The notes beneath the pieces are model-generated. The model worked only from the letters and a program-made list of their open reading frames with translations, made no database searches and was not told the origin of the DNA. From a bacterium (lineage in GTDB: Bacteria > Electryoneota > Electryoneia > Electryoneales > Electryoneaceae): a stretch of 64,000 nucleotides of DNA. Shown one piece after another: positions 4,444 through 37,576 of the stretch. Location of the stretch: the NCBI GenBank assembly GCA_963669175.1, contig OY769902.1, positions 2,677,586 through 2,741,585 of the forward strand, written 5' to 3'. The position numbers and the translations under genes are program-made. Each line of letters starts with the position of its first letter. Position 1 is the first letter of the stretch.

Positions 4444-4597
4444 CGACATACAAAATACGCTATTCAAATGATCGAACTTCGGTTGAAAGTCGAAAGAATG
4501 CCGTTATTCTAATCATCCTTTTATCCTGTTATCCTGTTCATCTTGAGAGTATCTTGTACATCTTGTGAATAGCAGTGGAGCTGTAAAGGAGAGAGAG

Positions 4598-6250
4598 ATG
4601 CAAGTCGTGATTATCGGTGGTGACGCCGCAGGGTTGAAGACAGCAGCACGTTTACGCAGGCTGGATGCCGATACGGAGATCGTGGTTCTCGAAAAGGGTG
4701 ATGTCATTTCCTATGCAGCCTGTGGGCTGCCCTATGTCCTGTCCGGGGATATTGATTCAGTCAATGACCTGTTGACCACGTCGTGGGATGAACCCAAGAC
4801 CCCGGAGTATTTCAAACGGGCCAAGGATGTTGACGTTCGGATCAAGACAGAAGCAGTCGGTATTGACCGGGAAAATAAGCTGGTTACGGCTAAAAATGTC
4901 GAGACCGGTGAAATGACTGAAATTCCTTATGACAACCTGGTCATCGCGACCGGCGCATCACCGATTCTTCCTCCGGGTGTGACAGGATGCGATCTGGATG
5001 GTGTCGGCTGCTTCACCAAACCGTCCGAGATGAAAGCGTTGAAGATGGGGTTGGCGCAGGGTGAAATCGGACGTGTGGTGATTCTGGGGGCCGGGTATAT
5101 CGGGCTGGAACTGTGCGAAGCCTTCGCCGCTTTGTGGGGCGCGGAAGTCGTTCTGCTGGAGAAGGAAGACCAGGTGCTGCCACGTTTTCTCGATCCTGAA
5201 ACGGCAAAGCTGGTCAATGCCGAGCTTGTAAACAATGATATTGAGGTACACTGCGGGGTGACAGTCGCCTCAATCGAAGAATCCGATGACGGTCTGTTGG
5301 TGAAAGATACGGACGGAAACGAGTATACCGGCGATCGTGTGGTTCTGGCTGCCGGGGTGCGTCCGAATACAGCATTGGCGGAACAATGTGATCTGCCCCT
5401 GGGTGCGCATGGCGGCATACAGGTCAATTGCCAGGGCAAAACAGAAGATCCCTACATCTATGCCGCCGGTGACTGCGCCGAGCTGCCGATTGAGGATGGT
5501 TCCCACCTGATGCCGTTGGGATCGATTGCCAACCGCATGGGCCGGGTGGTGGCGAATAACATCATGGGGCAGGAAGATGAAATGCCCTTCCTGCACGGTA
5601 CAGCAGTCGTGAAAGTGTTTGATCTGAACGTGGCGATTTGCGGCACCTGCGCCAATAGTCTGAAACGTAAAGGTCTGGAACCGGAAGAATACTGGTCCAG
5701 CTTTGATGAACGAGCGCATTATTACCCGGAAGGTCAGAATGTCAGGATGAAGATTACCTGTTATCCTGGCGGTAAACTGGCGGGGATACAGGTGCTCGGT
5801 AAGGGAGAAGTGGTTCGTTGGGCAAATACCTTTGCACAGGTGATGGACCTGGGCGGGGGAGATGCACGTATGCTCAACCGTCTTGAACATGCCTACGCGC
5901 CACCCTTTGCCGCGGCGATGGACCCGTTACACTACATGGCCTCCATGATCGAACGTGGCCCTGACTGGCAGATGGCCCCGGATACGCTCGAAGACGGTGG
6001 TGATGAAGCCTGGACCGTGGTTTGCTTGCTGACCGACGCGGAAGAAGCGGAATTGGATAAGCCGGATGTAAAGGGACACTGGCTGCATATTCCGTACAGT
6101 CATCTTCGTGAACGCATGAGCGAGTTGCCGAAGGATAATGTGGTCCTGATCTGCGCCCTGGGTACACGAAGCTATGATGCCTGTGTAACCCTGCGGAACC
6201 TGGGCTACCATGCCAAGTATATCGCAGGGGGAGTGGCTTTCGGGAAATGA
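4598..6250 (+). CDS. CoA-disulfide reductase / NADH oxidase-family flavoprotein with C-terminal rhodanese domain (NADH-dependent persulfide reductase, Npsr-like)
   Basis: N-terminal VVIIGGDAAG FAD fold and SYAACGLPY redox-active Cys, typical of the CoADR/Nox family. Second Rossmann motif VILGAGYIGLE. The C-terminal 100 aa carry a rhodanese-like active-site loop CALGTRS. RBS aaggagagag upstream of the ATG at 4598. Confidence 0.8.
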   Translation: MQVVIIGGDAAGLKTAARLRRLDADTEIVVLEKGDVISYAACGLPYVLSGDIDSVNDLLTTSWDEPKTPEYFKRAKDVDVRIKTEAVGIDRENKLVTAKNVETGEMTEIPYDNLVIATGASPILPPGVTGCDLDGVGCFTKPSEMKALKMGLAQGEIGRVVILGAGYIGLELCEAFAALWGAEVVLLEKEDQVLPRFLDPETAKLVNAELVNNDIEVHCGVTVASIEESDDGLLVKDTDGNEYTGDRVVLAAGVRPNTALAEQCDLPLGAHGGIQVNCQGKTEDPYIYAAGDCAELPIEDGSHLMPLGSIANRMGRVVANNIMGQEDEMPFLHGTAVVKVFDLNVAICGTCANSLKRKGLEPEEYWSSFDERAHYYPEGQNVRMKITCYPGGKLAGIQVLGKGEVVRWANTFAQVMDLGGGDARMLNRLEHAYAPPFAAAMDPLHYMASMIERGPDWQMAPDTLEDGGDEAWTVVCLLTDAEEAELDKPDVKGHWLHIPYSHLRERMSELPKDNVVLICALGTRSYDACVTLRNLGYHAKYIAGGVAFGK

Positions 6251-6294
6251 AGTTTGAAAGTTCAAAAGTTTGAAAGTTTGAAAGTTGAAAAGTT
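6251..6294. repeat. Tandem repeat (AGTTTGAA-like)x5, 8-9-bp period, immediately after the stop codon
   Basis: agtttgaaagttcaaaagtttgaaagtttgaaagttgaaaagtt. Confidence 0.9.
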
Positions 6295-6307
6295 ATTTTG
6301 TCAGCAA

Positions 6308-37076: not shown

Positions 37077-37175
37077 CAAGATACTCAAGAAGATTTACAG
37101 GATGAACAGGATGTGAAGGATTAACAGGATAAAGATATTTTAAGTTGTTTAAGAGATTGACTATGGGAGATTAAC

Positions 37176-37448
37176 ATGCCAAGTATAGCTATTGAGTTCT
37201 CGAGATTTTTGGAAGAAGCGAGGAATATGAGTTTGCGTGAAGTAATTTATAATGCACAAAGGATTGGTATGCGTATGGAACAAGAAAGATATGATGATGC
37301 TTTAAATATGCAAAGATTGAAAGAATTTACATTTTCATTGAGAAATAATTTAGAAGGATCAAAAATCTGTTCCTTATATAAACCTATTGTTGATTCGTTA
37401 ATTGGTCGAGGTGAGCTTCAAGATACTGGTTTTACATATTACTCATAA
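37176..37448 (+). CDS. Hypothetical small protein (90 aa) in an AT-rich segment
   Basis: ORF with an RBS-like gggag 8 nt upstream. GC is about 35 %, far below the surroundings. No recognisable motif. Confidence 0.3.
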   Translation: MPSIAIEFSRFLEEARNMSLREVIYNAQRIGMRMEQERYDDALNMQRLKEFTFSLRNNLEGSKICSLYKPIVDSLIGRGELQDTGFTYYS

Positions 37449-37576
37449 TACCTTTTATCCTTATCATACTTAATATCCTTGGCATCCTGTATATTGAGTC
37501 ATTATCCTGTGAATCCTGGAGAAATCCTGTATATCTTGTGAATCCAACAAGTGAGGAGAGTGTAGTGGCGACCCCC

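Follow-up and report, generated by a model that had tools for sequence, protein, structure and literature searches.

Background

The closest described analogue of the repeat reported here is the REPIN-RAYT system, in which repetitive extragenic palindromic (REP) sequences accompany a REP-associated tyrosine transposase (RAYT). Our subject is a tandem array of heptamers related to ATCCTGT that recurs between the genes of a 64,000-nucleotide stretch of DNA from a bacterium of the family Electryoneaceae (GenBank assembly GCA_963669175.1, contig OY769902.1, positions 2,677,586 to 2,741,585; the whole stretch is called the window below), together with the inverted repeats that the same arrays form in other genomes and the small GxxExxY gene found beside them. 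As in REPIN-RAYT systems, the repeats are short and intergenic, occur mostly as inverted doublets with a short spacer in all intergenic contexts, are associated with a small gene bracketed by inverted repeats, co-vary with the protein clade and lack a target-site duplication. Dispersed inverted doublets and a repeat-flanked gene are present in both systems, whereas a RAYT gene and a palindromic REP were not found here. The associated protein is a PD-(D/E)xK protein of ~120 amino acids (aa) instead of a Y1 HUH (IS200/IS605-like) transposase, the arm consists of direct tandem heptamers with no GTAG-type head instead of an imperfect palindromic REP, the gene is present in many copies, and the arm, unlike the lineage-specific REPs, is near-identical between phyla, with one archaeal contig among them, so that its host range is far wider than that of any known REP family.

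Several other known systems share part of this layout. Miniature inverted-repeat transposable elements (MITEs) are likewise non-coding, multi-copy intergenic elements of 60-500 bp with terminal inverted repeats, of which rare longer copies carry a gene, and terminal inverted repeats around a small non-coding body were found here in 81 arm pairs. Unlike MITEs, the present repeats have no target-site duplication and no transposase-bearing parent in about 0.8 Mb of flanking sequence, and only the arms, not the interior, are conserved between lineages. A transposon model was rejected because neither a target-site duplication nor a transposase was found. Free-standing homing-endonuclease genes are similar in that a tiny nuclease-fold gene lies sporadically and co-directionally between housekeeping genes, an arrangement also observed here (fabD-X-fabG, radA-X, ade-X-manC and cdsA-X-dxr, where X is the GxxExxY gene); they differ in that neither a cleavage activity nor an empty target allele is known for the present genes and the heptamer arrays are abundant also where the gene is missing. 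The open reading frame (ORF)-bearing intervening sequences of 23S rRNA would be comparable in having inverted repeats able to pair around the ORF. The short tandemly repeated repetitive (STRR) sequences of heterocystous cyanobacteria, which are perfect head-to-tail heptamers of period 7, are also heptanucleotide-based intergenic tandem arrays of variable copy number, but the arrays described here have a period of 8-9 (7+2), another sequence, inverted pairing, a link to a gene family and a distribution that crosses phyla.

We conclude that the motif is probably the arm of a selfish, REPIN-like intergenic repeat family that is linked to a small nuclease gene. The motif of the window is a member of a family of triple-heptamer inverted repeats that spans several phyla, and this family is tightly linked to GxxExxY genes.

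Results

A family of inverted repeats shared between phyla

One genome per prokaryotic species (596 Gb in total) was scanned on both strands for the 20-mer ATCCTGTWYATCYTGTRAAT, which was found in at least 118 stretches of these species-representative genomes; the number expected by chance is ~17 by our own arithmetic, based on 16 fixed and 4 two-fold positions in 596 Gb and on both strands. The counts and carriers that follow refer to the matches listed by this search. The carriers include Acidobacteriota (Blastocatellia, Pyrinomonadaceae), Verrucomicrobiota, Chloroflexota, Beta- and Deltaproteobacteria, Cyanobacteria, Ignavibacteriota, Calditrichota, Bacteroidota (Saprospiraceae, Spirosoma) and Planctomycetota, the last with the cultured organisms Adhaeretor mobilis and Gemmata algarum, as well as metagenome-assembled genomes (MAGs) of Methanosarcinales and Methanoperedens. 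One carrier contig is genuinely archaeal: the element lies directly after fae-hps (E 7e-194) and near a gene for a CDC48 ATPase.

At most of these loci the canonical form is a palindrome consisting of GACAGGATttACAGGATgaACAGGAT, a variable spacer and ATCCTGTtcATCCTGTaaATCCTGTC, and the aligned layout reads (T)nG-ACAGGAT-tt-ACAGGAT-ga-ACAGGAT, spacer, ATCCTGT-tc-ATCCTGT-aa-ATCCTGT-C(A)n. The third unit, which the search pattern does not require, is present in 91 of 113 assessable matches. An inverted partner arm is found within 150 nucleotides (nt) in 69 of the 113 and at 150-600 nt in another 8, while 36 are solo, a class that includes some arms with degenerate partners and some chance matches. 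The order ACAGGAT then ATCCTGT accounts for 81 pairs and the opposite order is rare. Spacer lengths form a continuum between 4 and 93 nt and a further group between 200 and 470 nt. The spacers are lineage-specific; the Saprospiraceae copies, for example, have a common GTCGGCTTCGCCGAC hairpin. In 23 strictly anchored elements, a small sample, the flanks extend the palindrome, reading TTTwG before the element and CwAAA after it, and direct repeats at the junctions are not more frequent than expected by chance. The elements lie in 32 tandem, 14 divergent and 13 convergent gaps, and hence show no positional bias.

A near-identical 26-nt non-coding sequence in several bacterial phyla and an archaeon is rare, and the near-identity of the arm across phyla implies that it spreads horizontally at a high frequency or else that its recognition code is under strong constraint. 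The family appears to be undescribed. A search of Rfam with the window and eight loci returned no covariance-model match at the gathering score, and at E <= 10 gave only sub-threshold matches to generic hairpins (miRNA). In the literature searched, we found no description of the element: its 16- to 24-mers turn up only in an unrelated cancer context, and the terms GxxExxY, PDDEXK_3, nuclease and palindromic repeat led to nothing that describes it. In the one RefSeq record that was inspected, a copy on a Spirosoma oryzicola plasmid, between two cobalamin genes, carries no annotation. The arrays also give rise to spurious ORFs with translations such as ...RIYRIYRI... and ...PVHPVNPV..., and other small ORFs beside arrays are either diverse or are themselves translated array sequence.

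Some matches were set aside. The 33 matches in viral contigs are mostly antisense to coding sequence for collagen-like G-[Y/F]-T repeats, and about six of them look genuine; the look-alikes have the form ATCCTGTATATCCTGTAAAT and occur in giant-virus and phage contigs (L119-L151, for example L136 at 4856-5478 and L139 at 10456-10600). A Leptospira match (L055) lies within an ORF and looks like a chance occurrence. In a Methanoperedens MAG contig (L016, 981-3005), an arm at 2030-2054 is placed between a gene for a Fic-domain protein similar to 'mobile mystery protein B' (E 2e-11) and a gene of the TIGR04255 family, whose NCBIfam model is named sporadTIGR04255; these are further sporadic small-gene families near an arm.

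Association with GxxExxY genes

All-against-all clustering of the ORFs in the 118 loci, with ~0.8 Mb of flanks, revealed no recurrent transposase, and arm pairs 1-3 kb apart enclose none. The sole recurrent neighbouring protein was the ~120-aa GxxExxY protein, which matches TIGR04256 ('GxxExxY protein') and Pfam PDDEXK_3 (PF13366, PD-(D/E)xK) with E about 1e-41. Its gene is located between the arms at three loci (L052, L092, L095) and is frameshifted at another (L046), and all five GxxExxY genes or fragments in the 821 kb of motif-derived loci touch arrays.

The association was also approached from the side of the gene, by a metagenome scan with three GxxExxY proteins of which the best 80 loci were taken. 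Clusters of ATCCTGT type lie within 150 nt of the GxxExxY gene at 43 of the 80 loci and on both sides of it at 28, where the upstream arm usually has ACAGGAT units and the downstream arm ATCCTGT units; some genes stand between two complete palindromes instead. Loci without ATCCTGT arrays display the same layout with other units, namely ACAGAAT/ATTCTGT, ACACAGAT/ATCTGTGT, (C/G)GGGAT/ATCCCC and ACGCAGAT. When the unit sequence was disregarded and any 6-mer was accepted that recurs upstream and whose reverse complement recurs downstream, 45 of 77 testable GxxExxY genes were positive, compared with 2 of 51 genes of the window.

In a neighbour-joining tree of the 80 proteins, the unit types ACAGGAT, ACAGAAT, CACAGAT, GGGGAT and CGCAGAT each correspond to a coherent clade, and these clades contain GxxExxY copies from different genomic loci; therefore, the arms and the gene appear to move and evolve as one unit. 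Distant GxxExxY genes annotated in RefSeq, found on plasmids and chromids of Bacteroides, Bernardetia, Treponema and Sphingomonas in co-directional positions between housekeeping genes, also have inverted flanks of short units (CACAGAGGA, CACAGAGA or ACACGGATTCG). Across loci, the upstream neighbour of GxxExxY is co-oriented with it in 37 cases and not in 11.

No solved relative of GxxExxY was detected by sequence and no phage or defence-system family matched it significantly, the only PADLOC match being marginal (E 7e-4). A survey of the PD-(D/E)xK families lists PDDEXK_3 as lacking a known function and as having been transferred between Bacteria and Archaea several times (PMC3424549).

Two loci deserve mention on their own account. 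In Sphingomonas parapaucimobilis (L242, NZ_CP155749.1, 482506-483653) GxxExxY sits within the fatty-acid synthesis operon, 33 nt past fabD and 2 nt ahead of fabG, and is preceded by CACGCGAAGG-CGCGAGGA-CGCGAAG units. At locus L187 (1005-1500), four tandem copies of a segment consisting of the palindrome spacer, the right arm, the 5' untranslated region and the first ~10 codons of GxxExxY stand ahead of an intact GxxExxY gene, which suggests that recombination has recurred at one and the same position close to the 5' end of the gene.

Copies in the window

The recurrent intergenic motif noticed in the window is real. The 19-mer CCTGTTCATCYTGTGAATC has seven matches with up to 3 mismatches (4533, 4553, 14017, 17168 on the minus strand, 32919, 37092 on the minus strand, and 37526), whereas 0.02 matches are expected from dinucleotide shuffles and none of 100 shuffles reached seven. 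The coordinates of the copies given in the earlier note were correct within a few bases; the copy placed at 14008-14031, for example, should read 14015-14035. The looser heptamer clusters that it reported hold up as well, at 13770-13810 and 24630-24740, the second with about 11 units. What did not stand is the description of a 20-nt motif as a unit of its own, as it covers two and a half repeats of a 9-bp unit made of a heptamer ATCYTGT (also ATCCTTT and similar) and a 2-nt linker; Tandem Repeats Finder reports periods of 8-9 for the arrays. With clusters defined as at least two units 7-12 nt apart, the window contains nine, compared with 0.67 on average and 3 at most in 100 first-order Markov simulations.

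Eight clear arrays, all intergenic, lie between 4515 and 37545 (Table 1), six on the plus strand and two on the minus strand, a bias that is not significant. Matches between the array regions extend over at most 43 nt, and the similarity ends where the arrays end. Most arrays of the window are solo arms ending in ...ATCYTGTGAATC. Their neighbours are housekeeping genes: those for a pyridine-nucleotide disulfide oxidoreductase, a DUF4139 protein, valS, an NlpC/P60 protein, ligA, a Band-7 protein, a protein with the Por_Secre_tail domain of the type IX secretion system, and mutS. The earlier note had remarked that copies also occur outside promoters, and this is borne out: arrays stand at the 5' ends of genes (starts at 4599, 13770, 24834 and 37565) and equally at 3' ends (the valS stop at 14039, the stop of the Por_Secre_tail gene at 37076) and in a convergent gap (32915-33024). 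A possible decayed arm, ATCCTGTaggttttttctcGTGAATC, is seen at 46634-46665, directly past the start of a citrate-lyase-like gene (45411-46631, minus strand).

The one complete copy with cargo is the element at 37077-37545, in which two inverted arrays enclose an ORF of 90 aa. No family in Pfam, NCBIfam, PHROG or PADLOC matches this ORF, and searches of 5.8e9 clustered and of 1.8e9 representative proteins found no homologue of it. The single-sequence AlphaFold2 model of its product is confident (predicted local distance difference test score, pLDDT, of 88.7) and four-helical, with no fold match in the Protein Data Bank (PDB). On the best reading, the other arrays of the window are arms that are solo or expanded by slippage, six or seven in number.

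The nearest relatives have MutS proteins 87, 70 and 69% identical to that of the window, followed by Candidatus Electryonea with 64% and Calditrichota and KSB1 with near 52%, which places the organism of the window among the uncultured bacteria of the FCB group. The regions upstream of mutS in the three nearest relatives contain no arrays and no small ORF. One relative with a ValS 73% identical retains the valS-DUF4139-recG synteny, and its valS-DUF4139 spacer, of 134 nt, contains a plain hairpin but not a single array, as against 268 nt and two arrays in the window. As the arrays are absent from both regions in these relatives, they are lineage-specific additions and not conserved regulatory sites; as far as such comparisons can tell, the arrays of the window are insertions in this lineage and not operators of the adjoining genes.

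Table 1. Repeat arrays of the window and the features that accompany them (window coordinates)
Feature	Position	Strand	Sequence and context
Solo array, 6 units	4515..4572	+	ATCCTTT, ATCCTGT, ATCCTGT, ATCTTGA, ATCTTGT, ATCTTGT, then GAATA; 27 nt from its end to ATG 4599 of the pyridine-nucleotide disulfide oxidoreductase gene
Solo array, 4 units	13769..13805	+	ATCCTGA, ATCCTTT, ATCCTTT, ATCCTGT, then AAATTC; minus-strand reading ACAGGAT/AAAGGAT; abuts and overlaps the DUF4139 gene start (gene 13770 down to 12316)
Solo array	13995..14035	+	ATCCTGTaaATTCTGAatcaATCCTGTtcATCTTGTgaATC; 3 nt past the stop of valS (minus strand); exact 19-mer at 14017-14035
Short solo arm	17166..17190	-	CCTGTTCATCTTGTGAATT; ~410 nt upstream of valS (minus strand)
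Lone ACAGGAT unit	17234-17240		Near the arm 17166..17190
Expanded solo array, ~11 units	24634..24740	+	ATCCTGT, ATCCTTC, ATCCTTT and similar; ends ~95 nt upstream of ligA (24834); the 453-nt spacer also has GTAAAGAAG and AGTTGTAA tandem arrays
Solo arm	32907..32943	+	ATCCTTAaccATCCTGTtcATCCTGTgaATCCcTGT; gap between convergent genes; exact 19-mer at 32919-32937
Left arm of cargo-bearing element	37077..37135	-	Plus-strand reading CAAGAT...ttACAGGATgaACAGGATgtgAAGGATtaACAGGATAAAGAT; begins 1 nt past the stop of the Por_Secre_tail gene (37076)
Cargo ORF, 90 aa	37176..37448	+	AT-rich, GC 0.32
Right arm of cargo-bearing element, seven units	37457..37545	+	Ends ATCCTGTatATCTTGTgaATCC; 20 nt upstream of the mutS start (37565)
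Five TGTCATCC units	40257-40344		Ahead of the GIY-YIG gene
GIY-YIG gene, 93 aa	40410-40691		PF01541, E 4e-16
Eighteen GGATGACA units	40730-41344		Within 56-, 77- and 211-bp higher-order tandem repeats

Discussion

The mechanism that we propose for this family runs as follows. An arm is made of three or more 9-bp units with the consensus ATCCTGT-tc-ATCCTGT-aa-ATCCTGT-C. Inverted arms bracket either a short lineage-specific spacer, and such miniature palindromes without a gene outnumber the other forms, or a small gene, which in most cases encodes the ~120-aa GxxExxY / PDDEXK_3 nuclease-fold protein. Since the heptamer variant tracks the protein clade, arms and gene appear to travel together. 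The tandem heptamers may be cis sites recognised by a GxxExxY multimer, and recognition could trigger cleavage, after which the unit would home or be copied. Palindromes without a gene, like solo arms, would then be non-autonomous or decayed derivatives, and slippage would alter the number of units. The copies of the window fill intergenic gaps up to the gene boundaries. A possible but rather doubtful extension is that the whole is a cross-domain mobile system in which GxxExxY, and not a transposase, reads a tandem-heptamer 'address' whose variant co-evolves with it, and drives the spread of the 26-bp arms and their contents. Of the two roles offered for the motif in the earlier note, that of a dispersed miniature repeat is the one that receives support, and that of a nucleoid or transcription-factor binding site does not.

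Several observations weigh against this interpretation. There is no GxxExxY gene within the window, the only cargo there is an orphan ORF, and most copies in the window are solo arms, while inverted pairs dominate elsewhere. The 80 gene-side loci are those closest to seeds taken from motif-bearing loci, and the resulting proportion of 54-58% may overstate the association in the whole GxxExxY family. Recognition of the heptamers by GxxExxY is something that we infer, and the co-variation of unit and protein could reflect simple linkage. Neither a target-site duplication nor a pair of empty and filled alleles was found, so that movement is deduced from the distribution of the copies and not seen.

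Among the alternative explanations, one that we consider unlikely is that the arms act in RNA as an insulator or processing stem, comparable to an rRNA intervening sequence: on read-through, the arms would pair around the cargo and processing of RNase III type, or refolding, would shield the host operon, while the gene-less palindromes would be hairpins at mRNA ends. The canonical palindromes do fold as near-perfect hairpins (DNA z -11 to -20), the arms of the window element at 37077-37545 pair across its ORF in both the minimum-free-energy and the centroid RNA folds, and the predominant co-orientation of GxxExxY with its upstream gene, within operons such as those with fabD and fabG or cdsA and dxr, would suit such a role, which is compatible with the interpretation given above and does not exclude it. 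The arm sequences themselves point elsewhere. Over 78 distinct pairs, 47.7% of the linker positions in one arm complement those in the other, compared with 41.2 +/- 3.5% for shuffled partners (39 of 1000 shuffles attain 47.7%), and the C/T states of the heptamers agree between arms in 83.5%, compared with 79.5 +/- 2.0% after shuffling, so that they co-vary only weakly; in a stricter set of 28 arm pairs, linker complementarity is 57.1% versus 56.7%. Over half of the linker positions interrupt the stem, with the heptamers unchanged, and therefore the constraint is on the sequence of the arm rather than on pairing, a pattern that would favour recognition by a protein over a purely structural role in RNA or DNA. 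A stem alone also leaves unexplained why a specific heptamer is conserved across phyla. About a third of the arms are solo, and the solo arrays of the window fold no better than shuffled sequence (z >= 0, except for one 46-nt array with z = -1.0). The RNA fold of the whole window element is unexceptional (z = -1.6), and the Rfam search was negative. An RNA role as a sponge for CsrA, with ACAGGAUG like the repeats of CsrB, was considered and dropped: the units are mostly buried in palindromes, the element is present in an archaeal contig, and some of the carrier phyla presumably lack CsrA.

A protein might instead be supplied by the host. In this explanation, which we regard as no more probable than the previous one, the arrays are binding sites for an abundant nucleoid-associated or partition-type protein that coats the 9-bp units, and small selfish genes settle alongside. 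Ribbon-helix-helix proteins such as omega and MetJ bind arrays of heptads or 8-bp units, which tandem heptamers at sub-helical spacing resemble, and the conservation of the heptamer sequence rather than the stem and the expansion of arrays to 10 or more units agree with binding of this kind. However, we know of no host protein common to bacteria and archaea for such a site, heptamer variants sort with the clade of the GxxExxY protein that they enclose and not obviously with the host, and no neighbouring gene other than GxxExxY is recurrent. The lack of arrays in close relatives of the window organism would also be unexpected for a core chromosome-organising site.

It is considerably less likely that the arrays are plain short tandem repeats of the STRR kind, born by slippage independently in each genome and without mobility or function. 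The window does contain other tandem arrays of 7-9 bp (AAGTTTGA, AGTTGTAA, GTAAAGAAG, ACGCAAAG), and the variation in unit number from 2 to about 11 implies slippage. However, slippage accounts for the length of an array and not for its origin, and as a sole explanation it is refuted by the identity of the arms across phyla, since independent origin cannot account for the same 26-nt arm, linkers, inverted pairing and gene family in different phyla.

The least probable explanation by our estimate, to which we give almost no weight, is an operator for a CRP/FNR-family regulator or for Rex. Operator sites of CRP/FNR read TGTGA-N6-TCACA and those of Rex TTGTGAA-N4-TTCACAA. The earlier note had compared the near-palindrome TTCAtcttgTGAA with CRP/FNR boxes, and this symmetry turns out to be a 4-bp by-product of the linkers. 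It had also recognised a Rex half-site, and here TTGTGAA is indeed present and a Rex homologue is encoded at 50655, but there is no second half-site; in place of two-fold symmetry we find one TTGTGAA and a weak TTCA-N5-TGAA symmetry that is limited to the 4-bp TTCA/TGAA. Nor are the copies confined to promoters, given those at 3' ends and in convergent gaps, and matches to sigma-70-like promoters and intrinsic terminators in three array regions are no more than expected by chance. The same sequence is found in unrelated phyla within palindromic repeats in all intergenic contexts, and relatives do not conserve it upstream of mutS or in the syntenic valS-DUF4139 spacer. The earlier note had named a lack of positional bias and of conservation in relatives as grounds for giving up a regulatory role; since the elements are unbiased in position and the arrays are absent from the relatives' examined regions, that role is refuted on those grounds.

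Other repeats in the window

A second small-nuclease gene lies between inverted arrays of short units at 40240-41344 of the window, where a GIY-YIG gene is flanked by TGTCATCC and GGATGACA units (Table 1); an ORF at 40842-41555 on the minus strand, overlapping the GGATGACA repeats, looks spurious. Other tandem arrays of 7-9 bp, mostly intergenic, are located at 1958-2007 (within a called ORF), 6250-6294, 9997-10018, 24377-24443, 24465-24534 and 32489-32571, and their units are, respectively, AAGTGAAAA (x5.6), AAGTTTGA (x5.6), TCCTAAT (x3), GTAAAGAAG (x7), AGTTGTAA (x8.8) and ACGCAAAG (x4, followed by an AAAGA-rich run). The unit ACGCAAAG resembles the ACGCAGAT variant of the arm that stands beside some GxxExxY genes. 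A 23-bp unit, GCAAGACCTGACACAACATGCG, is repeated 3.5 times at 26973-27051.

REP-like GC-rich hairpins (ATTCCCGCGAAGGCGGGAAT, ATCCCAGCGAAGGCTGGGAT, AAACCCGACAGCAAGCAGTCGGGCC) occur at 12222-12241 and 16843-16862, at 13913-13937, 13958-13982 and 19152-19176, and at locus L232 (9710-9870). The ATTCCCGCGAAGGCGGGAAT type is also found upstream of mutS in the relative with the 87% identical MutS, and these hairpins are a separate, lineage-level repeat family. Long-range inverted repeats at 32575-32895 (ctcacaagaatttgtgcat...atgcacaaattcttgcgag and cgtcaggtcttgacgtgatgcc...ggcatcacgttgtgacctgacg) span a spurious-looking TTG-start ORF (32642-32914) and have no Rfam match at the gathering score; this region may be a structured RNA or another palindromic element.

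Conclusions

For the organism of the window, the analysis removes a false regulatory lead, in that the arrays should be annotated neither as CRP/FNR or Rex boxes nor as promoters of mutS, ligA or the oxidoreductase gene. For the GxxExxY/PDDEXK_3 family, which is widespread and has no assigned function, the link to the arrays is a testable clue to what the protein does. The comparisons suggest that the arrays are the likely DNA target of GxxExxY, and the natural variants of the unit (ACAGGAT, ACAGAAT, CACAGAT, GGGGAT, CGCAGAT and CACAGAGGA) offer ready-made specificity swaps. If GxxExxY does read the heptamers as an address, the family would gain a function, and very small, sequence-addressed nucleases with their non-autonomous repeats would form a new class.

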